NCBI GenBank assembly: GCA_973895155.1
Contig: OZ316894.1
Location: 24,054,709 to 24,118,708 of the forward strand
From: Marsupella aquatica
Taxonomy: Eukaryota > Plantae > Marchantiophyta
Direction: 5' to 3'
Length of the DNA: 64,000 nucleotides
The notes under the pieces were generated by a model. That model was not told the DNA's origin. It did not search any database and saw nothing but the letters and a program-made list of their open reading frames with translations. Position numbers and translations under genes: made by a program. Positions 12,092 through 38,805 of this stretch are shown in pieces; positions within the stretch are counted from its first letter, which is position 1; the number at the start of each line of letters is the position of its first letter.

Positions 12092-13997
12092 TCAATAAAG
12101 AACCTCATCATATACAACATTTTTTGTCAACTTTGCTTGACCCTCCTCGGAATCTGAAAATAAAACCTTGATAGTTGTAGGTGATGTTGCCCTTGAGAAT
12201 GCTACATACAACTGTCCATGACTAAATACAGGCTTTGAAAGTTGCAACCCTACAGACCTTGAGCCTTGTTTATGGTCATTGCATATGCCACTCGAACGGT
12301 AAATTGGACCCTACGTAATAAAAATGGAAGTGACTCGTCAGACGTCAACGGAATCCGTGGGATAAATGTAAGGGTCCCTGCATGTTTTCCTGCGAGAACA
12401 CGTGCCTCAATGACACGACGATTCATTGCTCTCACAATTAGCCGAGTACCATTACACAACCCCAAAGAGTGATCTATATTCCTAAGTAAAATGATAGGGC
12501 ATCCAACCTTCAGTACCAACTTATGAGGCGGCAGACCACTCGGCGTGAGTGTATTCAAGAACTCCGTAGGGTAGAAATTCTCCCCTTCGAGCTGATCTGG
12601 ACGATCTACGCTAAAAAACTCACTTGATTCCCCGGGAAGTCCTTCTAAGATAGAGTCATTAATTTTTAGTTCCTCGTCATTTGTCGGCGCCAGGATAGTT
12701 CTCTCACTTAAGAACCTATCGTCCACATTAGCAAGAGTCGGGTATATTGCCTGAATCAATGATTCCACTCGTCCCCCATCCACCACCATAAACTCAGGGC
12801 AAGTAATAAGATTATTTGAAGGCCCTCCTTTTGGGAGTTTATCATCGCCCAATTGTAGTAGCCACTCCGCAAATGTAACATTACCAAATTCAGGAGAGGC
12901 ATTAGTTCCTCTTGCCTGCATATTTTCAGTTAGCTTCAAAGTCCGTATACTACTCCACACATAAGACTTCTTCAAACACGACCACACAATCTCCGAACGA
13001 CTTGCCCTTGCCTTCACTGGAAGCACTTGTCAAAAATCACCTGCAAATACAACTACAACCCCTCCAAAGATTTGGTCATTATCTTGTATGTCGTGTAAAG
13101 TTCTATCCAACGCCTCCACTCCATGCCGATGGATCATGGGTGCTTCATCCCACAAAATAAAAGTTTCCCTTTGCAATAATCCAGCAAGGTCAGATTGTTT
13201 TTGGATGCTGCATGTCGATGTCGAGATTGGTTTCAATGGTAGCTTGAATCTTGAGTGTGCGGTGCGACCTCCATTTAGCAAAAGACTTGCAATACCCGAG
13301 GAAGCTACGGCCAATGCAATGTCCCCATCTGCACGGACTCTCCGAAGTAGAACATTCTCCACAAATGTTTTTCCAGTCCCCCCTGGTCCATCAATAAAGA
13401 ATGTCGCTCCATCTCGAGCCCTCATTGCTGCAAGTATTGTAGTGTACGTTGCCCTTTGACCCTCGTTCAACAATGGCTCCTGCTCTGCAAGTTGTTGTCG
13501 AAGTATATCCATCGGGTAATGTGTCTCCTCTCTTATCAACCGGTTTCTATTTCTTCCTCTTGGAAAAACTCCATACCTGGTTCCGGACGACCAAACTTGA
13601 GCAATGTTTTACCCACACTTTTCAAAGCCTCATCCATCAAATGTAGAGCAAAGCTTTGTTGCTGCTGCTCCATAGAATCTAAGAAGCCCATTGATTGCAA
13701 ACAATACCTACAATCATCACTCAAATTGGATGCATGTTGTGTCCACAGGTCGCACGGCTTGGCAACACCTTCAAATAACAATATTGTGATAAATAGTTGC
13801 CGAATTTGCGCACCGGTGTGCATGCTTGCTGCTTCTTGAAGGCATCTATCCCACTCCTCATTGTTCTCATACAAACCCCGGGCAAGAGCCGCGGCGTGAA
13901 AGGTTGGGTAAACATTGCCCTCAAATGTGCGAAGGTCGATGAACGATGTTGCACCTTTGATGCGAAGAAGAAGCGCCCTCAAGTAATACCGTTCACC
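12092..13997 (-). pseudogene. Helitron RepHel, C-terminal part (PIF1 helicase), disrupted
   Basis: GERYYLRALL, DGPGGTGKTF (Walker A), WDEAPM, GDF(R>stop)Q.LPV, GLCNGTRL, YAMTINKAQG, FSHGQLYVAFSR, TKNVVYDEVLY-stop. Contains stops and frameshifts. Confidence 0.93.
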
Positions 13998-14296
13998 TGT
14001 TGTCAAACACTTGTCAAGGAGCTTAAGCAAATTTTCTCCCCAAAAGACTACCTAATACCTGCTCCATATCATACGAGGTCACAAAAGATTGACAAAACTT
14101 CTGAAATGTGCCTACAATGTCTAATCACTCCATACATAAGTAGTTTCAACTCTCCACTTCTAGAGAGGTAGTCTCCTCGACTACTTTTGTACTCACACCC
14201 TTCCCCTCTCCTCTACTCCAAGGATTAGCAAGGGCTGGGGATCTCCGCTCCAAGCTGTCACCTTAGAGTAGATTCTCACACAAACACCCAAGAACC

Positions 14297-14595: not shown

Positions 14596-15359
14596 CAAGA
14601 TTACACCATAGCATGGACTCTTCTCTTGCTCCCATACACTTCAAATGGGTATGATAGCCATGACAGAAAACAAAAAACAAAAAACCTGTTACCAGGGGTT
14701 TATTTTCTGTTAACAGGGAAATTGTACCTGTTACTAGTAAGCTTGTCCCTGTTACCAGTTTTGCCTGAACCATAACGTGCATATCCACCACTCTAAGGTG
14801 CATATCCACCACTCTAATGGCATAATTTTTCGGGGGGCAATAAAGTTTAAAACAAACAATTATTTTGTGCCATCCGATGGATGAAGTGTACTATCAATCC
14901 TCCATTGACACAACAATTTATTATAGAAGATAAAAAACATGGTATTAGGAGTGTGCCTAAAGAAACATTCATGCAAATCAATCTATTTTCATCGCCAAAT
15001 AGTGACCCTTAGAGTGGGACCCACCATAGCACATGTCAATCGTGGAGTCCAAATCAACCCAATCTAAAGGAGTTGATTAAATGGACCTTGTAACGTCACA
15101 AACAAATGACAAATCACATCCTCGAGGCTTTGAAGACAGTAGACAATTTAATCAACTTACACATTTTAAATAAAACAAGAGGTCATTCTTCCACAATGCA
15201 CGTACATAATGAAGCAATGAATATCCAGTTTCCTAGAACCAGCGCCCGACGCTAACCAACAAAGTCTCAATAAAACAACTAAAATATCCGTTGGAAAAAG
15301 ACAAAATAGGGAATAACCGTTATATTGAACGACGACCTATTGGGCAGTTTCGATCTCTC

Positions 15360-18300
15360 TCATAAGCCATTCAAGTTCTGCATCTCCAGCACAAGCTTGA
15401 CTTCACCTAAAGTCAAAATAGGTTGGCTACAAAGAGTCGACTCCTCAATCTCAAGTTTGAAAACATTTATGTACACCCAGTATAGATGTTTGCAAGGCAT
15501 GTACGACTTGCCACGCGAATGTCGGAGGAAGAAGTCTTCACAAGAGCAAGCGGGGAAGATACAGATTTGGACGAAGTATGTGCTTGGTGATCGATGGTTC
15601 TCATGGGTTCGAATTCGAAATTGCTTTCCAAAAGCATTTCCGGTCTGAACATTCCATTCCCCATCCAAACTCATCACTTCTTGTCGTGCAGACTCCATTC
15701 GCTTCGTGTGACCCATAGTGAGATTAGACCGAGGCCTTGAGTTCCTCCCATTCCGACTACCAAGTCGGAGATTCAGCTCCAAAAACCTTATTGTTTCTGG
15801 GAACACGTTAACATTTATCCTGAGGTCAAAAGCAGATGGCACAGATTGACTCAATCCTGTTGTTCGCGCTAAGACAAGTCCTTGCTCTTCCAGGAATGTA
15901 ATTTCAGAAGGAGACAGGCTCGTACCCTTCAGAACAGGCAAAATGTCAGGAAAAGGAGGAAGCTTCTGAACACCACGACGCGGATGACTCTTGTAACACG
16001 CTTGGTTCGGGCAAAACCAAATCATTTCGGAGATGGGTTCGCCCCTGAAGAGACGATGGCCCTTCACGACAATTCTGACAACACCTTCAGACGAATGGAA
16101 GCCAACCTTCTTGATACGATTTTGACACTCATCGCGATCCGAACTCCCATTTAGTGTACCATTGCATTGCGGACCTGCTCCATACTTTGATGTCCGTCGC
16201 AACTGCCACTGCCCCGGAGGGACATCCTTCTCTAGCACAATCGTGCGTGGAAGTTGATTCTGAAGTGCTGCTGGGGCACTGAGTGGAGGTTTTGAGGATC
16301 TTGTTGTTTGGGTTGTTTGAGGAGTATAGTCCAGTGAATCAGTATCACTCTCTGATGTGACCATACCTGAGAGATTCACTGCCTTTGTGACAGGATGATC
16401 AGAACTTGAGGGAATAGAAGAAAAGTCAGTTCTGTTCAGGTTCTTCCTTTTCAAACCACGAGTATTTGGTGTGGTTATTAGAACGGTGTCATGCCGATGG
16501 GAATCTTGTGGAGAGACAGTCCCAGTTGCATGTCCCTTCCTCTTCATTGACTTCGTCATTATATCTCCATTCAGGGGAGTACTTCTTTCCAAATCGAATT
16601 CTGCTGCGTTAGATAGAAGCATATTAGTCGCTTCTTCAAACAATCTTGGCGAACCTGCTTGATTGGCAGAACGGAACGCTAATTCCCATATAGTTGGCCC
16701 CTTCCCCCGGTTCAAGCCTTTACGGTATGCACTGTATCCGGCAACTTGAGACAGAGCACGGTTTTGGTCAACTTTGCAAGCTTCATAAAGACCGACCTTT
16801 TTCTTTGTAGCCGAGGCTTTCATGGACGCATGCCTTGATTCTGACCCTGTACAGTTGGGGATCAAGGCACCTTCCTCAGCGCTTTTGCTCTGCCATACGA
16901 AAATGTCAACCGTAAGTAGTATTCTATTACCAGCGCCCGGCGCTGGCAACATAAATATGTAGAACAGGCCTGAAATACAATTTCAATGTTTAATACTGAA
17001 TTCTAACTACATATTGGCTTCAATTTCTTGTACTACTTGTTTTGACGTGTATGGAGAAAATAACCAGCGCCTGGCGCTAATATGAAGTTGATGAACATTA
17101 CAATCTAGATAGATGGATGCCTTACCACTCGAATAAAATTGCCCCACTGGCGCCAGCGAACAACCCACCAAGATATCCAGCTTTGCAGCATCTTCAGCTT
17201 TCCGGGGACACAGTTTCCTGATTGCCACCACACAACAATCTCTCGGGACACCCGGTATGCTGCCACAAATGATGGTGCATTTCTCAGTTTCTCCCAAAGT
17301 CTTCGATGCTCCGATTGACATTCTTCCAGTACTCCTTCCTTGGAATGATGATGAAAAGATTGATAAAAGTGAAATGCATCAGAGCGCTCCCTCTCCGGGT
17401 CCGGGTGTCCACCAAAAAAAACATTTTGCACTGCATTCCATCCAGCTTGTGCATTGTCGGCCATAAATCCTTGGATGACAACCTCCTGAAGTTCATTTTC
17501 TTTGCAAACCTCAATCATCACTCTCCATGCCTTTTTGAAGGACTCAGTGTCTTCACCTTTCAACTCGCATATGAAAATTGTACACAGTGCACGGAAATTG
17601 TGGTCGTAGACGTGTGCGCTGAAAGTAAACCAATCCGTGGTGACACGCTGCATCACATCAAAACTTACCCAGGGTCCTTCGAGTCTTCCACCCGGTTGCA
17701 TCTGCCTCAAAAGATCCACACCGGAACCGTGACCTTTCACGGTCATTTTAAAGATGTGAGGCCTATCGTTCTGACATCCCTGACCTGGAAGCAAATACCT
17801 TTGGAGAAACGACACATGAATCCTCCTCTGCATTTGCAAGAGAAAATCTAATTCACCCCGACCTTTTTGGTCTATCCTAACGCTCCGACAAAGAGATGCA
17901 AACTTCTGCGGAGTGGAAAGGACCATCAGAGACTTCCATATTTCAGTTTCTTTGATATCGACCATGTCGTCAACATGTTCGCAGAGAGATTTCACTAAGG
18001 ACCCTGTAGCAGAATTCAAGATCCCTGCCGGTTTTGACAGAGGATTGGCTTCATGTTTTTTTTTAATTAGATCCTCAGCTATCTTCTCCGCACTCCTACA
18101 GAAGGTTTTTCTACCTGGATGGTTGTGCTCACCTATATGAATTGCCAAGCGGGACATATGACTACATGTTTCCGCATCAAGTAATACTTGGGGGTACATG
18201 TAAAACAAACGAGCAGGGCAGTACTTCACACAAAAAGGAATCTGTTCGCAGTAATGACAAACAACACCTCCCTCTTCGATGAAAGATCCCACAGCATACT

Positions 18301-19111
18301 GACCACTGAGCTTTGGAGTACCCTACCATGCCTTAGCATTTGCCTTCTTCTTCCTTTGGAAATAGTCGCAAGACTTGTTCCTGCATTCAATGAATCCCGT
18401 ACAGGTAACCTTCCCAAACTGCCAAAGGTTTTTAGGATGAACAGTTGCAGTTGTTGGAAATATGCGTGTCCAAATGTAACAATCTTTGGCATGATCCATG
18501 TCCCTAAGCCTAGAGCCTTTAGAGAGCATCTTATCAATGGGTGGCAACTCAAACACGACGTTACCATTGTACTTAGTTGGCAGACAAGACACTTGTTCAT
18601 GCCTGAAATCACCCGCTGATATGAACCATGACAACTCACTATGACTAGTTGATTTGAGTAACGTATCCATCGCATTGCGCCGGTACACGACCTCCAACTG
18701 CTTAGAGCTTCCCGGAGTCTCAGCTTTCACGACAGCAGGGAGCGGGCTTTTCTTCTTCGATGGTGGACTTAGAGTACGATCTCCATCCTCACTTGAAGAA
18801 ATCTCAACCACATCACATGGAACCGACGGGAAACTGGACAGTCCTGCATGCTGTCTTAAACAAACCGAGTACAAGATCCCTGCGTAGAGATGCCAAAACC
18901 GTTCACCGTCATCGACATTGAACGTTGCAGCATCCTCGATATCATCAATGGATTCGAGCTCTCAAACAATGGCCTCAATGTCATTCATCTTCAAATCAAA
19001 TCTCCCGCAGAGATACCTCTCCCGGACCTGCTTGTACGTATCTTCCATGGGGACGGGGATAGTCACAATATCTTCAGAACCGAATCGAGAAAGAACGATA
19101 GACCGAGACAT
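15360..19111 (-). pseudogene. MULE/Mutator-like transposase with GCM/WRKY-like zinc-finger N-terminus and C-terminal SWIM finger
   Basis: ORFs 18962-19111, 18323-18874 and 17105-18292 are in one frame separated by single stops. Cys/His cluster (CTG..C.N..C; C..C...C...CPA...H.G.H.HP), core FDVMQRV...FMADNAQ...DAFH...SESRH, SWIM CSCEDF...PCKHL. Intron ~16890-17125. Confidence 0.75.
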
Positions 19112-19299
19112 GGTGAACAAAAACAAAAACTGAGGGCTATAGCGTTTGAAAGAAGAAAAGTTCATGGTATTGTTCAGCTTATATCTGTCAAACCTGGGAA
19201 TTTGACGTTAACCGATCCGTTTGTATACGACATAAAACATAGACGATGGAGGATCCGTTGGCACCATAAATGATTTTTGTCGTTTTTTCCCCGAGAAGT

Positions 19300-20075
19300 C
19301 CGGATGTCAGACACGAACATATTGCTAAAAAGATCACCAACCTTACTTAAACAGACCATAAGATATGACAAGGTATTGTCAAATTTTAGTAGCGCCTGGC
19401 GCTAACTAAAATACGCCACTAAAAATGTGTCTGAAATCTCGACATTCCAAACTAGCGCCCGGCGCTAGTATAGAATAAATTCCCTGAAAATGAACATTAT
19501 GACCACATACCAGGTGGTAATTGGGAATAAATGGTGCCTTCAAAGGATGGTTTTGATTGATTATGGATGATAAATAAACATTTATACTAGCGCCGGGCGC
19601 TAGTATTACATTTGAGAAATATTTCTCCGTAAACGATGTACTGAAGGATACTTTAATAAAATATGGGGGTGGAAAGGCCAAAATTTATGTCATAGCTCCT
19701 TCAAAAAAGACCTCTAAATTTCTTCCAGTTTATACTAGCGTCGGGCGCTATTATAAGCATACTCTAAATTGTTCACCTTGATGGTCATCATTAATGCTAG
19801 CGCCCGACGCTAGTATTGATATGATGTTAGGAAATGTCTTTAACGGTAACATTCAACGGTAACTTATGACTTCCGTGTGTGTTACGCATCTTCTACCGTT
19901 TGATTTTGGTAATTAAACCTTCCGTATACAGACGTTGGAAACTGCGAAACATCAGAGCTAATGGCTTTCCTCTAGGTTATGTCATCCTCCCGCTAGAATA
20001 TATTACACGTTCAGAGATGATTATAGTTCCATAATTTCATTGTACGATAGTTCGTACACTTCTAGAAGGAAGACG
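19300..20075. promoter_or_regulatory. Divergent intergenic/promoter region with 5 clustered AGCGC palindromes
   Basis: AT-rich spacer between the minus-strand MULE-like gene and the plus-strand ParB-like gene. Palindromes at 19391-19811. Confidence 0.55.
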
Positions 20076-23000
20076 ATGGAGGTATTCCCCTCTTCTTCCA
20101 GAGGGTATAGTGCGGTTCCTGACCAGGAGCGAGCTTATTCTGAATCTTTGCAGTCTTCGTTTACTGGTTCAGTCTATACACGTCGTGTAACTCGTTCCTC
20201 AAAGTTGTTGCCGCTCACTTCTGTCAGCGGTGTTTTGGGTCCAAATCCTTTGCAAAGAAAGATGGACAACGTAGACACAATTGCGATCTAGGATGTTGCG
20301 GATTGCGCGCTTGCTGAGATTGATCTCATTTCGAAACATGTCATGTCTTTTGGAAAGGATTCTCGTGGATTTGACAAGGAGCCGCCTCGAATCCCTCTAT
20401 GTCGATTGGTTCACATGGAGGTGGTTCGTACTCTGCAGAAAGACAGCTCTTCCATCGAGAAGCTGAAAGACTCTTTTCGTAGTATGGGTTACAACTCTTC
20501 GATAGGGATGCGTTTCTATGTGCAGCCAACGGATGAGAACGGAATTGTTCTGACCTGTACCCAGGACATTCGTGATTCATGGGATCCAATATGGCAATTG
20601 GAGAACGAGAAGTTTGAGGCTGAATGCGAGGCTGACCCAGATTTTCTCGTCTTGAAGGATAAGATGTTCTCTGTATTCGATGGAAATCACAGGTTGTACT
20701 CCTGGACGCTTGTAACAGAGGAGAACCCGGACAATCCAAAATATCATCCTCGTGTGCTCTGTACAATATTTAAAGGAGACAAGGGATCTCTCATTGAAAT
20801 TGAGGTAGCTATGCACACGTGAATCAGTAAGTTCTCATGATTTCCAGTTCTTTCCTTAAATCTTGCGAGTGTTGTATTTACTAGCGCTCGGCGCTGCTTA
20901 TACATGAATTGTTTTTCATTGACTCTTACTCTCAACGTTTGTTCGTGTAGGCTTGGCCAAGCAGTTGTAGAGCCTTCCTGGATCCTGGATGCGGACATAA
21001 TCAAACGAATTCTGGCGCATGACCTTGAGTATTACAATAAACTAATTGACCCGGGTAATTTCAAGAAGTTTGAAAGCATTCGGATGAAAACTCGGAAGGG
21101 GTCATAGTATACGAAGAAGATGCCACAAGAAGCACTTGTTTACATTCTTTGTGAGAATAAGATAAAGTTGTACTCGCATCAATTCAAACTCGACATGGAG
21201 GTAGCGGAGGCTCAAGGGAGTCCATGGTAGGCGGACGAGATTTCAAAACGGCATGCGGCCATGATGAAAGACGCAACCAAAGATTGGGCAGTGAAGTCTT
21301 CAAAAATTACGCCCTTATTAAGTCCTGAATTTGAAGATTTCCTTAGTACATGTGCAGAAATGTATGCTGTCACAGAGAGAAACAAGAGAGAGAAGAAGCC
21401 TGACACCGTTGTATGTACGATGGACCGCGCACGATTGTTCACCATTGTTTCTGCTCTAGACCCAAAGTTACGAAGCACTTTACTTGTGGCACATTGCAAT
21501 CCTGAGCTGCGGAGATAGTTTTTTCACCCAGCAAGTGTTAACGATGATTTAGTCAAACAGTGGTGCCACACTTGGATCACTTGGAATAGTGTGGAGGGAA
21601 TTGCTGCTGGCATGTTACATTCATGTCTACGTGAAGTTGAGCAAACCATGCCCGCGAATAGATTGGAAGAGTGGAATTGTAGTTTGTTTGATGATCTAGT
21701 TCAGTTTGTTACAAATGAATTCAAGAGATTTGGTGATTCCGTGAAGAATAAGTTCTTTCACACTATGTGGCCTTCAAAGTACCCTGACAAAGAAGATTAC
21801 ACCCAGAGAAACCAGAAGCGAGCGAAGAGGTTTGTGTATAGGTTCTACATGCACATGGAGGTAACCAAACCTGATTACTTCTGGGCATATCCTGCAGCTT
21901 TTATGAAGTGGATTTCAATAAGTGAAGATGATGCCTTGGCTGATTTGTACTCTATGTACCCCACGGAGGGCATATTTCCTCCGAGACCAATGACAGAATG
22001 GGAGAGAACTCACTGCCCCTGGTATCTAGATATAGATAGATGGGATTCTCTTTTTGATCAAAGGGAAAAAGATGCCTTCCATAAGCTTTCAAAGTCTCAG
22101 ATGCCAGCAAAACTTGTGTCCGACATGAAGCAAGGTCTACTTGACGATGTAGACAAGTCTGCCACAAACTTGCAAACTATCTGTGAAACAACTGTTGTGC
22201 ATGTGGACCGGAGTCGCAAACCTCGCGCGAAAGCCAAAGCGGAGCTAGCAGCACCGAGCGAGTCTACTAAATCTGGAAAGAAGAGTAAGTATTGCTATCC
22301 ATGATTTTGCCAGCGCCAGGCGCTGGCAAAAAATATTTTGTTGAGGGTATTCTCTTTCTTGGTTATTAGGCTTCGGTTGCGACTTAAGTGAATTGCATTT
22401 GGTTAGCGCTAGGCGCTAGCTTCTTTCAATACTTTAAAAGTACTTATTCTAACTACGACCTGGTTATATTTTAGGAGGGAGGAAGTCTAATACGGTGGGA
22501 ACGGGAGATACGAAAAAGGATGCTACACCTGAAGTTTCTGAGGCAAACACGGGAGCTCGATTAGACCCCATTACTCCAGTTGACAAAGGGAAGGTTATAG
22601 TTCCTATCGACGCCACGAGTACCAAGAAGAAACGAAAGAGAGCTGTCGAAGGTGGACAATCTTTAAGGGAGAGTTTTATAGCTTCTGGTTTCCAACGTGA
22701 AGTTGGAAACTTCAAAACAACTATGTCTCGCCATTGCATGGTTGAGACAAGCCTTTCTGAATTTTTTGACTCGATGTTCAACAAGGAGGAGAAGCCCGAG
22801 TGGGTTAGTGATGTGGAGAAATGGGGAAAAGACCTCGTTAAGTTGGGATTTAAAGAGAAGGGAGTTGTTCGGGGGGGAAAAGTAAGATCATTTGGAGTGG
22901 ATGCCGGCTTCATTTACCTACCGACCGGGTTCAAACCATCTATCATTGATAAGAAGGTTCCTAAATGGAACATTCCAGATCACTCAATGGCTAGATCTTT

Positions 23001-24159
23001 TTTCAAATCCATGGATCCATTTTTATCAGATGATGGGTTCCTTGTAATTCTACACAATGGGGAGTACGATCCCATGTCGCAAGTCATTGCTGCCTGTCAG
23101 GAGTCAAGGAAATTTCAGTGTATATGCTCGCATAATGTTGTGATGTCTGACCCGATGTATGCGGCAAAGACATACCGAGAGATGTTTACCCTCAGGCTCA
23201 ACATATTTGGCTGAATTAATGGGAAATGTAAAATTCCCAAAGACCCCAAATTTTGGCCACTGTCCATCAGTGAGGACCCTTCGGTTACCAATTTGATCGG
23301 ACTCTCTTCGCTCAAATCAGATCCATTCCCGCAAATGGAGTTTGCTGGAAATGCTCGTCTGTCTGTGGGTTTTATGCAATCTGTTATAGAGCTTGTCACA
23401 CGGCCTCGTGATATTTTTATGGATTGGACTGCTGGGGCTGGAGGCTCTTACATTGCTGACGACTTCTCTGGACGATTTGTACTCGGGATAGAACACCGGA
23501 AAGAATTTATTGAAACCGCTTCAAAGGTTTTCATGGATTTGTTGTCTCCCAAAGAGATTGCAGTGTTACCTCCACCTGTTCCTACTGCCGACAGAAAAAA
23601 AAAAGATAAGCTTTGATCGGTTCTCAATTTTGATTTTGATGATGAATCGAGTGAAGGTGGAGAGGAACAAGGTACAAGAAACTCCGAGGAGGAAAAGGGT
23701 GAGCGTCGTGCAGCTGTAGATGAAACCGATAGTGATGACTCTTCCGAGTAATGTTCATAAACTCGTAAGCTTCTTTCTCCATTCCCGTCAATTCATAACA
23801 TTTCTTTTGTTGTTTTGGGGAAAGGCACCTTACAAAATGGACTTTGTTATATCAGGTCAGAGTGGAATGCAAGGAGACAATTCAAACTGCGGAGGAAGAT
23901 CGCGAGACACAACGTAGAAATACCGGAAAAACCGTTTGTTCTTCCCTCCTATGCAGAGAAAGCCGCAAGGAAAGCAGAAAGTGCAAGGACACTTTGCTGG
24001 GAAAACAAAGGTCTTCGGTTACGAAGGGGTGTTGACCGAAAGTTCATTAAACATCCTTATGTTGATGACTTCTCCCGCAGCCAGTACGTAGATGATGAGG
24101 CTGTGTCCACGGACAGATCCCAGAGTACAGATTCTGGTTCCGACTCAGAATCTTGGTAG
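20076..24159 (+). pseudogene. Large spliced gene: ParB/Srx-like N-terminal domain + C-terminal beta-class amino-methyltransferase-like domain
   Basis: IEKLKDSFRSMGY...VFDGNHRLYSW (ParB-N signature GxHR) at 20343-20822. C-terminal FMQSVIELVTRPRDIFMDWTAGAGGS.IA..FSGRFVLGIE (SAM-binding motif I in beta order) at 23293-23616. Degenerate motif IV candidate FIYLPTG and FLSDDG.L in 22495-23214. Introns ~20827-20950 and ~22286-22474. Several premature stops. 3' end uncertain. Confidence 0.65.
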
Positions 24160-24419
24160 TTGAGGCTAAATCTTTTAGCAGCGCCCGGCGCTTGTAACAT
24201 CTGTATTATTTCCCTCTGCTGAGGGTCCTTTTAAATTGTTGATTTCTCTCTACTTGTTGATTACTTTTGACTTTTGTTCTTTACAAGCGCCTGGCGCTCG
24301 CCAAATGGAATCTCTAAATGGCCGTTTAGTCTTTGTTGTTTCCTGTCAACGGTCATCGTCATTGGATACCAACTGCCATTTGGATTGTGTTCTTTAGTCA
24401 GTCGTCGGAAAACCGTTGG

Positions 24420-24800
24420 GGACCATAGTTTCGGGACGATGATTCCATAGTTTAGGGACCGGGCGGAAGAGACGACTATAGTTTCAGTTTAGGTTTGTTC
24501 GGGATGACGAGAGTTGGGGACGTCGATAGTTGAGGACAATGATAGTTTCGAGAGGATGATAGAACGGGATGATAGAATGGGAGGGGAGACTTTGTTTCGA
24601 GATGACGATAGAACGTGACGATAGAACGGGATGATAGTTCATTTGGGAAGACTTTGTTTCAGGAAGACAATAGAACGGGACGTTAGAGTAGGGCGATAGA
24701 ACGGGACGATACCTGTTACCAAGGTGAAGATAGTTTCGGGAGGCAATAGAACGGGACGATGATAGTTTGATGGTCGTTTCGGAACGGTAGTGTACGCGAA
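24420..24800. repeat. Degenerate short tandem repeat (gatagaacgggac / gatagtttcggga)
   Basis: More than 10 imperfect copies of gatagaacggga and gatagtttcg units. Confidence 0.75.
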
Positions 24801-24973
24801 CCTTTATCTGGCGTCTTAGTCTTCGCGGACCTTTCTTTGACCTTTGTCGGCTATAGCACTCGCGGACGACGTTCTTACGGGAGGAGAGGTTACATATTAG
24901 ATCGGGATCTTTGAAACATGGCGAGTCAGTATGAGCCAATGGATTGGGAGGCAGCTTTTCGTCCTTCTCGTGT

Positions 24974-25400
24974 CACTACTACATATTGGCCCCTTTTGCA
25001 AAGCTTTTTTTTGACGTCGGGATGGTCTTGCGATGTCATCAACTTCAGATATTTTGTGATCAAACACGCATCACAATAAACCATGCTCACAGGTTCGTAA
25101 CATGGTGTTGCGAAGCTAAATACCTTGCAATTTGTTTGAGATCGGATTGAATTTGCAACTCTTTCAGATACTATTTGTCTCGCAAAGTATTTGTGGATCC
25201 GCGATCATCGCGACTGCATTTGGATCTCTTTTGTTTCATAATTTAGCGATAATAATGTACTCAAATATATATTGTGAACCTATTAGCTTCGCACAATATT
25301 GTGAAGCATAAATAGTCGCAAGTTACCGAATCCAGTTGATTCGCAAAGTTGAGAACACATTGGCATCACAATTACCGATGGTGTGTTATTCACAAAGTGT
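24974..25400 (+). mobile_element. CACTA-like terminus (CACTACTACA) with ttgcga/tcgcaa subterminal repeats
   Basis: CACTACTACAT at 24974 followed by many (t)tgcga/tcgca(a) motifs in both orientations. Partner end not confirmed. Confidence 0.5.
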
Positions 25401-25728
25401 TCAGAAGTTGCTTCTTGACAAGCTTGAAAATGCTTTGCAAAGAGAGTTGTTTGAAAATTTTGTAGAATGGAAATGTTTGAGAGAGTTTCTTTACAAGATG
25501 GAGAATGCATGTGTTTAGGTTACAGCTAGGGTTTTCAAAAAGGTGGCATGCATGAGGATAGCTTTGGAAACGGCTAAGGTTGCATATATAACAGTGAGAT
25601 GAAATTTCAAAGTCCAATTAAGTGTTTGTAAAACAAAAGAAGAAAAGTAATATGTTAATATAAATAAAACCATGATAGTTAGTTTAGGGTCAAATTCTGG
25701 GCCCACAACAAGTTTTACTACTAGTGCA

Positions 25729-28700
25729 TCAAACCTGGTCCTCATCCTCGCCTCCATTTGACACAATAATAACGTCAGGTTTTTCCGAGATAATGGAACG
25801 GGACCGTGGCACATACGGTATAACAATTGACCACTCTAGGTCTGGTGGGTACGGAATATAGAAACACTGCTCAAGGTGACTTGGGAATGTAAATGGTTCA
25901 GATGTTTGCCAATGAGATGGTTGAAAGCTAGTTGCTGATGTCTTCAGTCGAGTAAACCCACACTCATCAAGAAGTACCGTGCGATTATCACCAACCAGGT
26001 GAATTTTGAACCACTTACACTTGAAGATATACTCTTCAAATTTGGAATCGGCATCATAGGATATGATCAAGATCTCCTCAATCTTCCCATAGTGAGGCAC
26101 CACATCTCTGATCACATTAGTGTCATGACGGCTACTTTGTGAATCTTGCATGAACTGCCCTTGAACTCCACAATCAAAAGTTCTTCCCCTCTTCTCATCA
26201 AGGTCAGAAATCCTGAAATGCCTCCCTTGTGTCCACATTGCTGTTCTGGTTTGAACAAGTCTTAAAGGACCATGAACAATTGTTCGAACCTCAGGAGTCA
26301 TATCTGGAAAATGTGATACATTCTCACCTTGGGCCACCATAGCATCCAATTGAAGTACTTTCTCCTTCATATACTCAAGGAACTTTGGAAAGATCCTTGG
26401 GCGACGACTCTCCCTCTTTGCATCCTCATAAAACTCTCTCCAATCTTCCATCACATTGTTGTTACTCAACATGAAAGTACTAACCTGTGTCAACTCCACT
26501 GCGGTTAGTAAGCGTGTTTTTTTTGCACCTGTTAAACGGTCCTCCTCCACTTCCCTCTCTTCCATCCAAGTGCGTGGAAAACTAGGATCAATGGTAGCTA
26601 AGATGTTACTACAATAAAACATACTCTCAGCTGCCAAGTATCCAGTTGCCATGCTCCCCTCCACTCGTGCACGGTTCCGTACATAAGCCTTTAACACGGC
26701 CATATACCTTTCCAGCCAATACATCCACCTACAATGCACCGGACCGGCAATGGCAACCTCCCTCACAAGATGAACGAGAAGATGCACCTGACAATCAAAG
26801 AAGGAAGGAGGGAGGGCCTTCTCCAACTTGCATACCACCTCTGCTGCCAATACCTCCATCCGTGGTATCTCTTCTTCATATATTTCCTTTGAGCATATCC
26901 ATCTCAACAAAGTGCCCAGTGACCAAAGGGCGTCTTGCACTTCTTCACTCCCCAAACCTATGATTGCCACAGGAAGTATATGTTGTAGTAAACGATGATA
27001 GTCATGTGTCTTGAGATACATTGGCCATTTATGACTGTCCTCCATCCCAAAAGCCTTACGTAGATTGGCACCATAGCCTGTAGGAAACCGCATCTGCCCT
27101 ATGCGTTGTCGAAACTCTCTTCTTTCACCAACACTCAAAACCCATGGAGCTGAAGGACGATGTTCCATCCCTGTGGATTCATCAACTATTATCCATACAT
27201 CTGGATGTCGTTCTAGATCCTGGCATGCCTCCCTAAAATTAATGTTCTTTTCCCCATAAAAGTGCTTGATCAAAGCCTTCCCAACATTTCCCTCTATATG
27301 CATGGGGTCTAACAAGTGATGAATCTTCAACTCAGACCAATAGGGCAAAGTGGCCAGTATACCCCACCTTGTCAATCCACTACCATCAAATCCCATGGCA
27401 TCTTCAGGGTCTGCCACCCTATCAGCTATGGACTTCCAATACGAAAATGTGGTGCGGTCAGGTATCTCACGCTCATCACCATTGATCATGTCAAAGTCTG
27501 AAAACAAAAGGGGGTCAGACCTCATGTGATGCCCAAGTGGAAGAAACTTGGTATGACCAAGGTAGATTATCTTGTGCAGCCATTTTGAGTACTTGGCCAT
27601 ATCGTGAAGGCTTGGACCACAAAGTGGAGCATGCCTTGTACCCTTGAGTTTGGAACCCAGAAACAAACCCAAACCCTGCTCACAAAATAACATTCTCAAT
27701 TAGAGTCAAAGGAATTGAAAAGTTCATGTACATAGAATTAAAGAGGGACTTCCTTCCAAACAAACTTGATCTCCAATACATGAAAAAAATACAAATCCAT
27801 ACCACTCACCTGGATAGTCATGCATGGTCCACATAATGATTCCCTTCAATTGGAAGACACGTGGTAACCCTCCTGTAGTTGTCCGATCATCATATGCCCA
27901 TACACCCCCCCATAATTTATGGAGTTCCCCAACCAAGAGCGCCAAGTAGGTGTCCATGTTTTTTACCTTAGATGGACCTGGGATAATCAATGATAGCAAT
28001 AAGAATCCCTTTTTCATGGACAACCATGGGGGAAGGTTGTAATTCATAACAACCACCGGCCAAACCGAAGTAGGGCGCCCTTTCCCTCCAAGGGAGTGTG
28101 GGCTTACCCCATCTGATGCCAACCCCAACCTCACATGACGAGGGTCACGTGCAAATTCTGGCCATTGTGACTCCACATGCTTGTGAGCAGGGGAATCAAC
28201 TGGCAACCGCATGACACCGGCCTCTAATCGATGTGTCTTATGCCATACCATCAATTCTGCCAAGTCAGAACATCGGTACATGTGCAACAATCGAGGAATA
28301 ATAGGAAACCAACGAACAGCTTTTCTAGGCACCTTTGAGGTCAACATGTTGGTTTCATATCGAGGCTCTTGACAAATTGGACACTCAGTTGCGTTGGCAT
28401 TGGTCTCATGATAGAGAATGCAGTCATTCACACAAGCATGAATGATATGGTATTCCATGCCAATGGATGATAGAACCCTCTTTGCCTCCTTCCAAGTTCC
28501 TGGCAACACATTTTCACTAGGTAACAAGAGATCATGGCAAATTGCAAACAAATCCGATAGTAGCGCATTGCTTGCCTTGTGTTTTGCCTGAAGATTCATC
28601 AATGCCAAGATGGCAGATAGTCTATTCAAACGAGCACCCCCATAAATAGGTGTTCTAGCATGTGCCTCAGCTTCTTCCCATTGTTTTTGTCCTTCAGGTG

Positions 28701-28999
28701 TACGTTGAGGCCTTGGATCATGTGCAACATTTGGTGGAGGGTCTCCTTCATTGGGTGGGACACCTCCTTCACCACCAATGTCTACACCAAACCAATCTGT
28801 CATGAAGTCATCCATGGCTGACTCTTGGTCTTGCATGACCTCATAATCTGTCCGAGGTGCCCCTTCATCTGGACTGTCATTATCATTGTCACTTGATGAG
28901 GAATCTGCTGATGATGTTTCCCCGTCTTGTGGCAAGCCCATTTCTTGATATGTAGCTCTCAACCTCCTTGGCAACATATCTTGACTAGGCCGCACATTC
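25729..28999 (-). pseudogene. EnSpm/CACTA Tnp2-type transposase (Transposase_21 + DUF4218 + DUF4216-like)
   Basis: IHACVNDCILY, CPICQEPRY, WFPIIPRL, RHVRLGLASDG, YNLPPW, HDYPG, LDPMHIEGN, KTHDYH, PPSFFD..VHLLVHL, WMY.LERYM.VLK.YVRNRARVEGS, YGKIEEI, FKCKWF. Intron ~27677-27808 and an apparent frameshift just after it. Confidence 0.93.
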
Positions 29000-29148
29000 T
29001 ATAGAAAATACAATAAAGTATTCACAATGAAATTAACGCCAAATATAGTAGTGCTCGAAACATATTATTAACAATATAAAAAGAACATATCATTACAAAA
29101 CATACGTTCACATACGATGAACGTATAATACATGTCCCTAAAGTAATC

Positions 29149-29965
29149 CTAATCCCATTCATAATGTGTAAACAACTCCTCTCCAACCAGAATGGTCCTA
29201 TTAGCTACAACTAGACAATGGTCATGATGATATCTCTGCCCATAAGGGGCTGGAGGGGGACCATCAACAAAAACCCATTCATAGTTTTTCCTACGCTTAG
29301 GCCGGGTCCCCACAGTACTGTTGATGAAACCGGCAATATTCCCACTACGGATGGGATCACCATCAATTATACGCTGGTCACAATACTTTCTGGTGCAACC
29401 ATCAAAAGTATCCATGTCCAATGCATAAGTCTTCCACTCAGGGTGTTGAACAAGGATCATGTTCCAATGTCTCCTCTTGTAAATGGGTCCACCATACGGG
29501 AACAACGTTGGTCCATCTGAAGAGCGCCCTTTTCCACCCATATCATCCACAATAATGTCCTGACAAGAGAAAATCCCATACCCATGCCTCTCCCCTAGGG
29601 TCGAACTCTTGACAACCCAACGTCTTCCCCAAACTTCTATCTCCTCACCATAGGTTATATCACATGGCAAACCAAGGCACTCCGGATTCCAATCCTTTAT
29701 GATAGGAACACACTTCCCTGTGAAGGTACAAGGGCCCCATCTACCATCAACCCTACAAGTGTACTGATCCACTTCCCCTCTAGGCTGTCTTTTTGACTTT
29801 TTTTTCCCTCTTGTAACAATACCGCCACCCTTAATTGTCCCAACACTACCTTGCCCTGCTGCCACTAAACGAAAAGCTTGTGAAAGTGCCGAGCCTATAG
29901 CATCTAGAACTCCTTGTGAGGGAACATAGGGTGTTGGTGTAGTGGGTGTAGGCCTACTGGATACC
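29149..29965 (-). CDS. SET-domain (lysine methyltransferase-like) exon carried in the CACTA transcription unit
   Basis: Open frame with VKSS...HGYGIFSCQDI, FPYGG, IDG...GNIAGFINS...N, VVANRTILVGEELFTHY: the SET signature motifs. Acceptor AG at ~29966. Confidence 0.8.
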
Positions 29966-30075
29966 TATAGGAAGAAATGGAACCAAGTGAGTGTGATGAA
30001 CCTCCCAAATTTTATTTTATGCTACCTAGCAAGATTTACAAAATAAAATGGAAATCACAGTAAGTTTACAACTCA

Positions 30076-30310
30076 CCATACGGGATGAAGAAGCTCCCGG
30101 TGTAAGACCTCGATGTTGGCCATATCGAGCAATGTGCTCCGCACATACATATGACTTTTGGACAACCATCCCCACACTTTTTTTACAACCACAAAGTTGG
30201 CGTGGTGGACCACTAGGTCGACGTACGGTTGGTTCAGGTTGAGGAGGAGGATGACTTTCTTCATCGGAAGAGGAATCTGATGTGGTGGAAGTTGTAGAGG
30301 ATGAAGACAT
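30076..30310 (-). CDS. Putative shared first exon of the CACTA unit (Ser/acidic tract + C-x-C...H motif)
   Basis: MSSSSTTS...QLCGCKK...CAEHIARYG, ending in a GTGAG donor at ~30075. Resembles the transposase-associated domain N-terminal to Tnp2. Confidence 0.55.
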
Positions 30311-31619
30311 CTGACAAGTATAGCAATTGGAAGGCAATTAGTAAAAACTTCACCAAAACCATCATTGATAATCCCTACCTAAATATATTAAAAAGAATTG
30401 ACAGAAAAATACCTTTATGAGACCCGGGCTTAGCAATGCCTTGACGATTTTGTGGGAGGGAATGGATCTTGACTATGTTGTCTGGGTTTGGACGCATCTT
30501 GTCTCCAAGAAATGACTAGTTTTCTAGTTAGTTTTTGGCTAGCGCCGAGCGCTATTCATGTATTAGTCGAAAACCTCCGACGGTGTCGACCGTGACTTCA
30601 TGGATGGGATTTTTAGGCCAGATTGTTGATGTTGATAACTGCATTTTGTATCACTTAAGCCGAGCGCGTTTTCTATTTTGCGATAATATATGCGAATGTT
30701 TTTTCCGGCCTTTCTTTTCTACTTGTATTTGTCTTGGATTTTGTGTATCTCAATTGGCAGCCATCTTTTATGTTTCAAAAAATTGTTTCCGTGTTGTTCT
30801 TTTATTTATCACGAGGGTTTGGTGGTTTTGTTTTCTATTCTTGTACTTTCAAATGGAGATTTTGAGACCTTTTTTTAAGATCACTTTTCACGACCATCCA
30901 AACACTGTTCACTGGTAACAGCTACCAGTGAACAGTTTCCTGTTACTATTACCAGTGAACAGTTTCCTGTTACTGTTATCTGTTTGCTGTCGTTTGTAAA
31001 TTCCCCCTTCAAATGCACTCACACTTAATGGTCACAATGAAGATTGGTCACAATGAAGATTGACAAGGTGCATTGCAAGATTGAGGACTACCAAAGCAGG
31101 CAAAAAGTCTCAAGTCCTTTCACTAATCCAAAGGACTATCAACGGCCAAGATTAGCACATCTAAAGTCAAAAAGGACTTAAACAAATCAAATGCGTATAA
31201 GATGCATTCATTAGTATTTCAGCTCCCGAGGTAACCCCTTTCTTGTCGCAACTATAATTTATGAGTGAAGGACAACCGGTTCTCTAGGAGAGTGCTGGTG
31301 CTATTAGTTCTGCGTGGAGGACTTTTCAAAAACAAGGAGTCAAAGTCCTTTGGGGAAACTCATTTTTTGTCCCGACATATAATTTACAGTTGGACAACTA
31401 GTTCTGTGGGAGAATGTCGTCGGCGCTACTAGTTTCGCAGGGAATTTTCAAAATCTAGGAGTGAGAGTCCTTCTCACTTAGGCGCGAGCTACAATTTGTT
31501 CAGAAAGTATCGAAGCCGAGCGCAAGGGTCCATACTTAGCCTCGTGAAGCACAAGATGGATGCCTCTGTGAGAATTCATTCAAGAGCAGTCGTGCAATGA
31601 TGTGAGATTCAAGATGTTC

Positions 31620-36859: not shown

Positions 36860-38805
36860 ATTTTATACTCGACTGCTGTCATGTTGTGAAGAGCAATCCT
36901 GCTTATGATCCAGAATTCTATGCCGACAATAGACGTAGAGCATTCGATGAGATTCAGGATGTGATTGACGAGCTGGACAATCCTCTTGCCACCGAGTTTT
37001 TTATTGACACTGGTGGGAAACTATATTCATACAAGATTCGTCAACTCCCCCCCAGCCGGTCTGTGCGCTCTTTAACTTGATCTATGTAAGTTGCCTGTGG
37101 ACGAACGTCCTTGCCAATGGTGAGATCTGTCCATGCTGCACAAATGCTTGTTGTGACATTCCGTCCGCCAAGGTGAAGAAACTATTTTTGCAGATATCTG
37201 GTCAGCCAGATTGGGCAACATGCAGAGAAATGTTTCCCAACGAAACAGATGTCTCGGTCCTTGGCATATGGGCGGAGAAATTGAGTGACGCGGTAAGCAT
37301 TCCTCTCACAACATGCTCTATCGCGAGATTTTTATCAGCTTTAGCATTCCTTTGTTGGTTTCTAAGCGATTGCATCTATCAGCTAGCGTGCTCCATCGCA
37401 AGATTTTTATCGGCTTTAGCATTCCTTTGTTGGTTTCTAAGCGATTGCATCTATCAGCTAGCGTGCTCCATCGCAAGATTTTTATCGGCTTTAGCATTCC
37501 TTTGTTGGTTTCTAAGCGATTGCATCTATCAGCTAGCGTGCTCCATCGCGAGATTTTTATCAGCTTTAGCATTCCTTTGTTGGTTTCTAAGCGATTGCAT
37601 CTATCGGCTAGCGTGCTCCATCGCGAGATTTTTATCGGCTTTAGCATTCATCTCACGCTATTCTAACTGTAGATGTGTCTGACATTTTTACAGCTGAAGA
37701 TTAATTTAAAAAGGAAAAGCAAAGTGGTTCCGGCTGTCACTTATAATTCTGCGGGGGAGGTTATTTTTCCCTCAGCTGAAATCCCTTATGTGTTTAAGAA
37801 TTTTGTGCTTGCTGCAATCGATAAGTACAATCGGCTGAGGTCCTTAGGCGAGGGCACAGCAGAAGCGTTTGAACAAACATGGAAAAATGCAGACGGGGAT
37901 TCTTTTCCCTACTATCTCCATGTTGGTGATGTTCGAATTTTGGATTCTTTTGTTCAGCCAAGGGCTTACACCCTTGTGGTTGCGGATATTCCGTATGGTT
38001 TTAATGCTCCTGGTTCGGAGTTTGATGAAGTGGCCTTCACAGAAAAGGACATTTTAGACATGTTGACAAGTTTCTCAAAGATGACGACCGCTAAGTAGTG
38101 GAGGTTTGTTGTGATCCATTCACTACAACAAACGCATATGGTGATGTCTGCATTGGACAGTGTATGCAACTGTGGGTCGAGGCTGGAATCTGGGAGAAGA
38201 CTAACATTCATGAGCGTCCCGCTGGAGCTCGATTGGCGTGGGGTTTTGAGAACTGGTCGATAGGTTTCTATAGCGAGGAAGGCATTCGGAACATGGACAT
38301 GTACAATTTCCAACCGGATGAGTCTCACGTCAATATCATCAAGGTTCCATGTGTAACCAAGAAGTCCGTTGATCCGTTGGGATTTGTTGTGAACCCGTAT
38401 CAGAAGCCTGTTGGTTTGGGGGCTTGGTTTGTTTCCCATTTTTTTGAGAAAGAGGATTGGGTTATTGATCTTTGTTGTGGAACCAGATTGACATTAGCTG
38501 CTACGCTCCTCAATTCTTGCCAGGGTTGTGCTGTTGATAAGAGTTCTACGCAGATTGATTTTGTGAAATCCCGGATCATGATTCTGGAGTCAAACTGGAA
38601 TTTATATGAAGAATCCCAAATTGAAGGGCACGGCATTGAAGGTCATGAGATTCAACCACCAATTGCAGGCCAATTGGGTGTTCTCGGGACATCGACTTAC
38701 ATAGTTGAGGTCGTGAAGGAGACCGAAGAGGAACAAGAAGAAACTAAGGAAGAGCCTCCCAGAACACCAAATGAGGATGATCTCAACGACATGTTATTAG
38801 ATTAG
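36860..38805 (+). pseudogene. Beta-class N6A/N4C DNA methyltransferase-like gene (cargo of the Sola1-like element)
   Basis: GDV..LD, LVVADIPYG (motif IV, DPPY-like), IWEK.N...FE.W.IG, NPYQKPVGL, WVIDLCCGT..T.AA...G.AVD (motif I): beta-class order. Introns ~37086-37192 and ~37292-37693. One stop (38096-38098) and a frameshift. 5' end uncertain. Confidence 0.8.
37314..37650. repeat. 75-bp tandem repeat x ~4.5 inside the MTase intron
   Basis: Unit gctccatcgcaagatttttatcggctttagcattcctttgttggtttctaagcgattgcatctatcagctagcgt. Each unit carries a cg/caagatttttatcg variant of the element palindrome. Confidence 0.95.

Follow-up and report, generated by a model that had tools for sequence, protein, structure and literature searches.

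In the present study, a 64-kb stretch of eukaryotic, transposon-rich DNA (hereafter the window) was analysed around a gene at 20076 to 24159 on the plus strand, whose product is predicted to combine a ParB/Srx fold at its N-terminus with a part resembling DNA amino-methyltransferases at its C-terminus. The initial annotation had described this locus as a possible eukaryotic ParB/parS-like arrangement. The domain folds and the accompanying palindromes stood up to analysis; however, the copy in the window is a pseudogene, and it lies within a transposon module, next to a divergently oriented, predicted Mutator-type transposase gene, rather than standing alone. Elsewhere in the window, open reading frames (ORFs) of Helitron-type PIF1 helicase, LINE-like, CACTA-type and other transposases were observed.

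The ParB-fold/methyltransferase-like gene consists of two open-frame stretches (20076 to 22284 and 22475 to 24159, plus strand), in which four exons at 20076 to 20826, 20951 to 22284, 22475 to 23747 and 23856 to 24159 were predicted on the basis of relatives and GT..AG signals. Together, the exons amount to 3662 nt, a multiple of three minus one base. Exon 1 begins with the ATG at 20076, ends at a GTAAGT donor at 20827 and contains the codons of a 176-residue ParB/Srx-fold domain (20292 to 20819, supported by an AlphaFold2 model and fold searches), including the FDGNHR motif at 20676 to 20693. Intron 1 (20827 to 20950, GTAAGT..TAG, 124 nt) holds a palindrome at 20883 to 20895. The similarity to contigs of diverged copies breaks at 20818 and 20949, i.e. 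around this intron, and the relatives P0002 and L002 pick up again at LGQAVVE behind it. A GTGAAT donor at 20819 was also considered and was dropped in favour of GTAAGT at 20827 with a one-base loss, because a contig of the family carries one more C after 20817, other copies read ...ACCGTCAATCAGTAAGT, and the relative L002 agrees with this structure. The product of exon 2 is a middle region some 444 residues long, which is conserved. Intron 2 (22285 to 22474, GTAAGT..TAG, 190 nt) contains palindromes at 22312 to 22324 and 22405 to 22417, and at its junction the relative P0002 stops on one side and P0004 starts on the other. Exon 3 encodes the domain resembling beta-class N6/N4 amino-methyltransferases, with YLPT at 22915 to 22926 and DWTAGAGG at 23422 to 23445, the latter followed by GRFVLGIE in the translation. 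Intron 3 (23748 to 23855, GTAATG..CAG, 108 nt) is without a palindrome, and exon 4 encodes a conserved acidic tail, which aligns with the C-terminal tail of relatives from Riccia (LP.YAE...P(F/Y)VDD) and ends with the stop codon TAG at 24157 to 24159. The FDGNHR, YLPT and DWTAGAGG...GIE motifs were found in the translations where the initial annotation had put them.

The window copy is decayed, and the anticipated need to splice and repair its ORF was borne out. Six premature stops were observed, namely TAG at 20289 (20289 to 20291, exon 1) and at 21105, 21228 and 21516 (exon 2), and TGA at 23212 and 23614 (exon 3), and a one-base loss near 20817/20818 brings a further TGA at 20820 to 20822 into frame. 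Nearly all of the lesions are C-to-T or G-to-A changes located at CG or CHG sites. An alternative genetic code for the in-frame stops was ruled out by the W, S and Q that relatives carry at three stop positions (P0002 has W at the codon of 21105) and by the sense codons found in other copies at five of the six. The latter come from high-depth family contigs of public runs and concern 20289, 21229, 21516, 23212 and 23614 (21105 was an unreported position). The family contigs have C at 21229, 21516, 23212 and 23614, and the comparison with one family contig of run X1 gives C at 20289; this contig also contains the extra C behind 20817 (depth 559.3 of 559.3), which is absent in run X2 (0 of 642.1).

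The number of contigs with at least 85% identity was 780 in run X1, 429 in X2 and 1208 in X3. The majority differences of run X1 from the window are T>C or A>G in 38 of 44 cases. For 36 listed positions of this type, the context was CG in 15, CHG in 16 and CHH in five, compared with 300 CG, 301 CHG and 1199 CHH among the remaining cytosines; in other words, 31 of the 36 lie in CG or CHG, against an expected one third. C-to-T and G-to-A changes with a bias toward CG and CHG are the usual trace of the deamination of methylated cytosines in silenced plant transposons, and the lesions of the window copy appear to reflect this process. The gene belongs to a high-copy family of plant DNA transposons, the host of which is probably a liverwort, and the window copy is a pseudogene. 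As the dead copy of a high-copy DNA transposon, the window locus itself yields no full-length protein.

A HMMER search of 1.84 billion representative sequences revealed 293 relatives at E ≤ 0.001, of which 132 were at E ≤ 1e-10 and 29 at E ≤ 1e-30. The named ones among them come from the liverwort Riccia sorocarpa, in which they occupy many separate loci, the liverwort Calypogeia fissa and the fern Adiantum capillus-veneris. With the profile of the C-terminal domain, 28 of the 29 matches were separate Riccia sorocarpa proteins. The Riccia models P0157 (1207 aa) and P0010 (1191 aa) each span the whole architecture, and several Riccia loci split the N-terminal and middle part and the C-terminal part into neighbouring gene models (e.g. 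R1sor_020454/020455 and 021159/021160). Full-length relatives are multicopy in Riccia sorocarpa. The middle region of 444 residues is conserved and had no match in Pfam or among the sequences of the PDB. With this family, the known range of ParB folds gains a branch that is eukaryotic, carries introns and escapes detection by Pfam. No description of a land-plant ParB-fold/methyltransferase-like transposon family was found in the literature searched, and the supplementary tables of a red-algal preprint may list homologues from the green lineage.

The N-terminal part had been called ParB-N-like, and structure prediction upheld this call. The AlphaFold2 model, built from an alignment of 52 sequences, reached a predicted local distance difference test (pLDDT) score of 94.8 and a predicted template modelling score of 0.88. 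When this model was scanned with VIA-align, 12 of 48161 chains showed Z ≥ 2, and all 12 belong to the ParB/Srx superfamily: KorB, the sulfiredoxins (Srx) of Arabidopsis and human, PadC, a serine kinase, Atu1540, pNOB8 ParB, SbnI, Spo0J, SspE, BrxU and Osa. The best matches were KorB (Z 6.7, root-mean-square deviation (rmsd) 3.0, 92 residues aligned), Arabidopsis Srx (Z 6.3, rmsd 3.5, 89 aligned, 25% identity) and PadC (Z 6.3). Likewise, the best 11 among the Foldseek matches listed were all ParB, Noc, KorB, PadC or Srx proteins, with probabilities up to 1.00, and the sequence profile of the domain gave just one chance match among PDB sequences, to a ribosomal protein (E 0.3). The positions G131, N132, H133 and R134 are near-invariant in the 52 sequences, as are IPLC and VR. 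The N-terminal part is thus predicted to have a ParB/Srx fold, and the conserved DGNHR and VR positions suggest that it likely binds nucleoside triphosphates (NTPs). GNHR is likened to the phosphate-binding Box II (GxxR-type) motif on the grounds of motif resemblance and the fold match, not of a residue-level superposition. The highest identity among the structural matches is that to Arabidopsis Srx (25% over 89 residues). FDGNHR presumably resembles the Srx active-site motif, and the position that we take to be the catalytic Cys of Srx is Asn in the window domain; unlike sulfiredoxin, this domain is embedded in a transposon protein of 1220 codons.

The ParB/Srx fold, the conserved DGNHR at a Box II-like position, the palindromic sites spread along the element and the degenerate motif IV of the C-terminal domain in all aligned relatives could be taken to indicate a strict ParB-like clamp gated by cytidine triphosphate (CTP), which would load at the palindromes as parS-like sites and slide along the element while the methyltransferase fold stays inactive. 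The ParB, Noc and KorB clamps share with the window element the fold of their nucleotide-binding N-terminal domain, an Arg motif at a Box II-like position and palindromes on the same replicon or element. However, neither a helix-turn-helix (HTH) of the ParB type, for which the initial annotation had proposed a check, nor a C-terminal dimerisation domain was detected in Pfam and PDB sequence searches of the 444-residue middle region, no ParA partner was found, and the structural Z-scores do not exceed 6.7. Moreover, the window domain matches clamp ParB proteins no more closely than sulfiredoxin, the serine kinase and SbnI, all of which bind ATP through this fold and do not clamp (PMC12704722), and in the same survey, fusions of ParB folds to S-adenosylmethionine (SAM)-dependent methyltransferases bound ATP rather than CTP (PMC12704722). 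The strict model of CTP-gated clamping and spreading therefore has little specific support, and we regard it as highly improbable.

The C-terminal part had been described as methyltransferase-like with a degenerate catalytic motif, and this description agrees with both profile and fold comparisons. PF01555 (N6_N4_Mtase) was matched at E ≤ 0.01 by 16 of 24 aligned relatives (best 1.9e-7), the full-length Riccia relatives score 23.7 to 26.2 bits against it, and five relatives carry a precomputed PF01555 label. Compared with the PDB, the family profile of the domain matched M1.HpyAVI (8e-4) and CcrM (1.4e-3, in two collinear segments), and it reached E 0.84-0.9 with the rotifer N4CMT. In VIA-align, with an AlphaFold2 model whose mean pLDDT was 45.3, the best 19 rows were all amino-methyltransferases, including M.MboIIA (Z 10.7, rmsd 4.0, 159 aligned), M.BceJIV (9.9), M1.HpyAVI (9.8) and CcrM (9.8). 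The rotifer N4CMT 8s9n reached Z 8.2, and unrelated Rossmann-like folds showed Z of about 5-6 with the same model. The order of the motifs, with motif IV first and motif I last, is that of beta-class amino-methyltransferases. Motif I is kept as DWTAGAGG in the window and DFAGGWGAT in Riccia, both of which align to DPFxGSGTT of M1.HpyAVI and CcrM. The position of motif IV, assigned by collinearity with CcrM, is occupied by YLPT in both the window copy and P0004, the relative closest to it, and by D(L/M)P(S/T) in the Riccia copies, and the canonical (D/N/S)PP(Y/F) tetrad is replaced in every aligned relative. These results support the C-terminal part as a homologue of the beta-class N6/N4 DNA methyltransferases in which motif IV departs from the canonical form; the form that it takes, in Riccia and here, makes canonical N6-adenine or N4-cytosine catalysis doubtful.

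A related architecture is known from phages and prophages, in which fusions of ParB folds to N6_N4 methyltransferases (PF01555) are described as enriched (PMC12704722). The window protein resembles these fusions in its N-terminal ParB fold, its C-terminal beta-class methyltransferase domain and its location on a mobile element. Unlike them, it is encoded in a eukaryotic nucleus by a gene for which three spliceosomal introns are predicted, about 444 unmatched residues separate its domains, its motif IV is not DPPY, and neither of its domains in the window reaches the Pfam cut-off. No phage donor could be detected by tblastn, the best phage match having E=4e-3 over 46 residues and covering the motif-I stretch alone. 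The methyltransferase-like domain might nevertheless be active with an altered chemistry or target, in which case the palindrome, with its two GCGC and its central CCNGG, would be methylated and the element would write a mark other than 5-methylcytosine (5mC) on itself, comparable to the marking of phage DNA by a phage ParB-methylase. This explanation is consistent with the retention of motif I (FxGxG-like) in the window and Riccia copies and with the fold and profile matches to enzymes that have N6A or N4C activity, among them the rotifer N4CMT; in addition, an N4C methyltransferase of the PF01555 type has been reported to be active in Marchantia sperm (bioRxiv 10.1101/2021.02.12.428880). However, besides the replacement of (D/N/S)PP(Y/F), no aligned relative retains the aromatic residue, and the subfamily of the window has additionally lost the first residue, which is acidic or polar in the canonical motif, whereas the Marchantia enzyme MpDN4MT1 keeps a canonical TSPPY according to the same report (bioRxiv 10.1101/2021.02.12.428880). 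MpDN4MT1 and the rotifer N4CMT belong to the same methyltransferase family by fold (the structure compared being that of N4CMT), and the former is also from a liverwort; as described, these enzymes still have a catalytic motif of the SPPY type and are encoded by host genes in single copy or in tandem, whereas the window family lacks the motif and is borne by a transposon. An active methyltransferase with the palindrome as its methylation site is, in our estimation, decidedly unlikely.

The second component of the locus is a 13-base palindrome, AGCGCNNGGCGCT. Allowing at most one mismatch, 28 strand matches, i.e. 14 sites, were found in the 64 kb, compared with a mean of 0.22 and a maximum of two strand matches in shuffled sequences, and none of 100 shuffles reached 28. 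Five sites lie in the intergenic region between the two divergent genes (19391 to 19811, starting at 19391, 19454, 19589, 19737 and 19799), 265 to 685 nt upstream of the ATG at 20076; three are intronic (starts at 20883 in intron 1, and at 22312 and 22405 in intron 2); and two are in the 3' flank (24180 to 24298, starts at 24180 and 24286), within 140 nt past the stop codon. These counts are the five upstream, three intronic and two downstream palindromes reported previously. Four further sites start at 15241, 16932, 17066 and 30541. The claim of a gene surrounded by palindromes is accordingly correct in that the sites are real and specific to the element, but palindromes are also associated with two other genes, being present in an intron and the 3' flank of the transposase gene and, in one case, ahead of a third gene. 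All 14 are in introns, intergenic DNA or flanks, and none is in a coding part. The dyad symmetry of many sites extends to 17 to 27 nt, with flanking letters that vary from site to site. At 19807 and 22410, where the window sites are mismatched, other copies carry the letters that perfect the palindrome (G at 19807). In run X5, labelled as a third organism, the intergenic segment with the palindromes shows a depth of 191 to 1093 compared with about 4 to 37 in the gene body, and one joint leads from 19817 back to 19587, as in a tandem duplication. This result suggests that the segment from 19587 to 19817 was independently amplified or tandemly duplicated in X5.

Related gene copies show a comparable arrangement with different sequences. 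The full intron 1 is visible in two related loci, L002 and L003, and each has its own short inverted repeat: the intron of L002 contains 11 AGCCCNNGGGCT sites against 0.05 expected, and that of L003 contains two ATCTCGGC-N7-GCCGAGAT repeats against 0 expected. The three subfamilies each have a different inverted repeat in intron 1, which, in this small sample, is what would be expected of a co-evolving protein-DNA recognition. Upstream of the gene copy in L003 (positions 1 to 170), three tandem units of about 57 nt were also observed, which end in a GAAGCGCGCAAA-like motif and one of which is decayed. Alternatively, the palindromes might have no dedicated protein and represent hairpin-prone, minisatellite-like sequences, small foldback insertions or sites of host transcription factors in unconstrained DNA. 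Their restriction to places where coding constraint is absent, the frequent lengthening of the palindrome by flanks with differing letters, as in hairpin-forming units, and the minisatellite-like appearance of the L002 array are consistent with such an origin. However, the same 13-nt core is found at 14 places and is perfect in other copies where the window copy has decayed, and each of the three subfamilies has its own inverted repeat in the same intron; palindromes without a partner are in our view very unlikely.

The gene divergent from the ParB-fold gene, at 15360 to 18961 on the minus strand, is predicted to encode a Mutator-type (MULE and SWIM-like) transposase and has an in-frame stop at 18323 to 18325. 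Its ORFs had no Pfam match; the assignment comes from the ESM Atlas, in which the nearest clusters were PF10551 MULE (score 0.95, 179 to 181 shared features), and from a SWIM-like CxC...CxH motif read by eye in the translation. The palindromes at 17066 and 16932 are located in a predicted intron of this gene (about 17125 to 16891, minus strand), and that at 15241 lies in its 3' flank. The palindromes are likely sites of action of either the ParB-fold protein or the neighbouring transposase. Because they are found in the transposase gene and its 3' flank as well, with one more ahead of a third gene, the transposase is an equally good candidate for the binder. In this explanation, the palindromes would be sites of the Mutator-type transposase, used in transposition or as a self-activating "controlling element", and the ParB-fold protein would act without reading them, for example when recruited by the transposase or on nucleotides or proteins. 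Three sites are in or beside the transposase gene and five are in the promoter region common to both genes. Transposases as a rule carry sequence-specific DNA-binding domains and are natural DNA binders, and no DNA-binding domain was recognised in Pfam and PDB sequence searches of the middle region of the ParB-fold protein. In addition, the AtMu1 transposase has been reported, in a 2026 preprint, to activate cognate copies sequence-specifically (10.64898/2026.08.24.746577). On the other hand, the sites of the present element are scattered over introns and promoters, and no long terminal inverted repeat carrying palindromes was found. The known sites of Mutator transposases are located in terminal inverted repeats. 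Furthermore, red-algal transposons offer a precedent for ParB-fold proteins that are adjoined by arrays of inverted repeats (10.1101/2025.02.11.637652). Sites that serve the transposase alone are possible but, on balance, rather unlikely.

On the other side of the ParB-fold gene, CACTA-type transposase ORFs with Transposase_21 (7.3e-39), DUF4218 (3.3e-34) and DUF4216 matches in Pfam, preceded by a SET-like ORF, occupy 25729 to 29964 on the minus strand. The SET-like ORF (29149 to 29964, minus strand; Pfam SET E 6.5e-4, 20.5 bits versus a cut-off of 22.4) is directly upstream of, and on the same strand as, the CACTA-type ORFs at 27724 to 28998 and 25729 to 27699, and it could be a separate accessory gene or the N-terminal part of the transposase gene. 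It is reminiscent of the red-algal transposon protein PAG2, which joins PF01555 and SET. The 14th palindrome (30541 to 30553) is situated about 230 nt upstream of the likely ATG of this block near 30312. The block may be part of the same element or may be nested in it; no CACTA...TAGTG pair was found around 24.3 to 30.6 kb. For an element of 15.2 to 24.3 kb or 14.6 to 31.0 kb, no significant terminal inverted repeats were detected. An ungapped comparison of the ends gave 14 of 40 matches, which is not above shuffled sequences. A 9-nt direct repeat, CTTCAAATG, at 14639 and 31007 brackets about 16.4 kb (14648 to 31006), and 114 of 2000 shuffles also reach 9 nt. The eight-base sequence CCTGTTAC has seven matches against 1.48 expected, in clusters at 14685 to 14755 and 30939 to 30973 and with one at 24712; six of the seven matches are in these places, all on the plus strand. 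These clusters and the CTTCAAATG repeat possibly mark the ends of a composite element, although statistically they are insecure.

Several other features were observed around these genes. Between the ParB-fold gene and the CACTA-type ORFs, at 24400 to 24760, short direct repeats of the GATAGAACGGGACGA and GATAGTTTCGGGA types are dense and resemble the subterminal repeats of transposons. Immediately left of the element, Helitron-type PIF1 helicase ORFs are found at 12250 to 14051 on the minus strand (PIF1 E 4e-51, Pif1_2B E 1.2e-20), and repeat units of about 180 nt are present on both sides of the 14.6 to 31.0 kb block. Farther downstream, an ORF at 37008 to 37682 (plus strand) consists of a 24-residue unit (ACSIARFLSALAFLCWFLSDCIYQL) that recurs in tandem, with at least four copies. 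Another ORF at 38095 to 38805 (plus strand) contains a motif-I-like stretch (…DWVIDLCCGTRLTLAAT…) and adjoins a DUF7869 ORF at 39156 to 40385 (minus strand, E 6.2e-31), presumably of another transposon. This motif-I-like ORF was considered as a relative of the C-terminal domain family and rejected, as hhalign aligned the motif-I-like stretch with a probability of 5.6% and BLASTP gave no match.

Two described systems are close to the present element in organization. The first is VANC of the VANDAL (Mutator) elements, which is reported to localise to the non-coding DNA of the element that encodes it and to bind motifs there, these motifs being tandem repeats that differ between related elements (PMC5735166). 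As in VANDAL, an accessory gene of a Mutator-type element occurs here together with short motifs in the non-coding DNA of the element, which differ between related elements. In contrast to VANDAL, the motifs in the window are palindromic, the binding is a prediction, and the proteins are presumably unrelated. To our knowledge, VANC has not been described with a ParB or methyltransferase fold. The second comprises the Plavaka and Mutator elements of red algae, for which the preprint describes PAG2 (PF01555 and SET) and PAG3 (ParB-like and 2-oxoglutarate (2OG) oxygenase) proteins, with inverted-repeat arrays that adjoin PAG3, and proposes self-binding and self-modification (bioRxiv 10.1101/2025.02.11.637652). 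Like these elements, which are described as giant DNA transposons, the present one combines ParB-like, PF01555-like and SET modules with inverted repeats beside the ParB-like gene, the SET-like ORF and the CACTA-type transposase adjoining here. The likeness is one of described domains; unlike in the PAG proteins, a single polypeptide combines the ParB fold with the PF01555-like part, whereas SET is found apart from them, and no 2OG oxygenase was observed. In addition, the present element resides in a land plant, and dispersed single palindromes take the place of one tandem array.

Herein, we propose, as the best-supported reading of the locus, that the protein of intact copies recognises the palindromes of its own element, either by itself or in concert with the Mutator-type transposase. 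The two would thereby form a system of anti-silencing or marking that is targeted to the element itself, and we assign this reading a probability of roughly 45%. First, the palindromes across the non-coding parts of the two-gene module would be the likely address of the protein, and an intact protein would read them in promoters, introns and flanks, alone or together with the transposase. Second, the ParB-fold domain would be the likely nucleotide-dependent switch. Third, the methyltransferase-like domain might bind SAM or DNA without canonical catalysis, or might have acquired a changed chemistry. The protein would then act locally on the DNA or chromatin of the element and favour its expression. 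We infer, in this scheme, which protein binds the palindromes, the role of the methyltransferase-like domain and the anti-silencing outcome.

Several results weigh against the proposed self-targeting. The window copy itself is dead, and the exact palindrome of the window is missing from all three related metagenome loci, so that what is conserved is the pattern of repeats rather than their sequence, with support from just two further subfamilies. The palindromes are equally tied to the transposase gene, with three in or beside it and five in the shared intergenic region, and no DNA-binding domain was recognised in the ParB-fold protein in the Pfam and PDB sequence searches of its middle region. 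Concerning the N-terminal domain, the Foldseek E-values are weak (best 0.038), Pfam ParBc (PF02195) was not matched, and among the 52 members only weak Pfam matches were obtained, to DUF1015 in four (best E 0.0056) and to DndB in three (best E 0.066), both of which we take to be members of the ParB clan. Concerning the C-terminal domain, the window copy scores 19.2 bits against N6_N4_Mtase (PF01555), under the curated cut-off of 26.7, a shorter piece scores 16.9 bits, and the AlphaFold2 model is of low confidence (mean pLDDT 45.3). A more far-reaching version of the self-targeting proposal, which we consider speculative and unlikely, is that a phage-type ParB-fold/amino-methyltransferase module was turned, in a family of land-plant DNA transposons, into a self-recognition device, in which NTP-switched docking on fast-evolving palindromes would deposit a non-5mC mark or block CG and CHG methylation by the host, making it a eukaryotic, transposon-level counterpart of ParB-parS with an anti-silencing function.

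Few transposon proteins are known to target their own DNA against silencing by the host, with VANC as the worked example and the red-algal PAG proteins as a proposal of recent date. The idea of self-targeting would be extended to land plants, with a different arrangement of domains, by a fusion of a ParB fold and a methyltransferase-like domain that exists in many copies in liverworts and is related to fern proteins. The system would also be tractable, as it offers short, defined candidate sites and the conserved Arg of DGNHR as a point of mutation, and liverworts of the Marchantia type can be transformed and are known to employ an enzyme of the PF01555 family for N4-methylcytosine.

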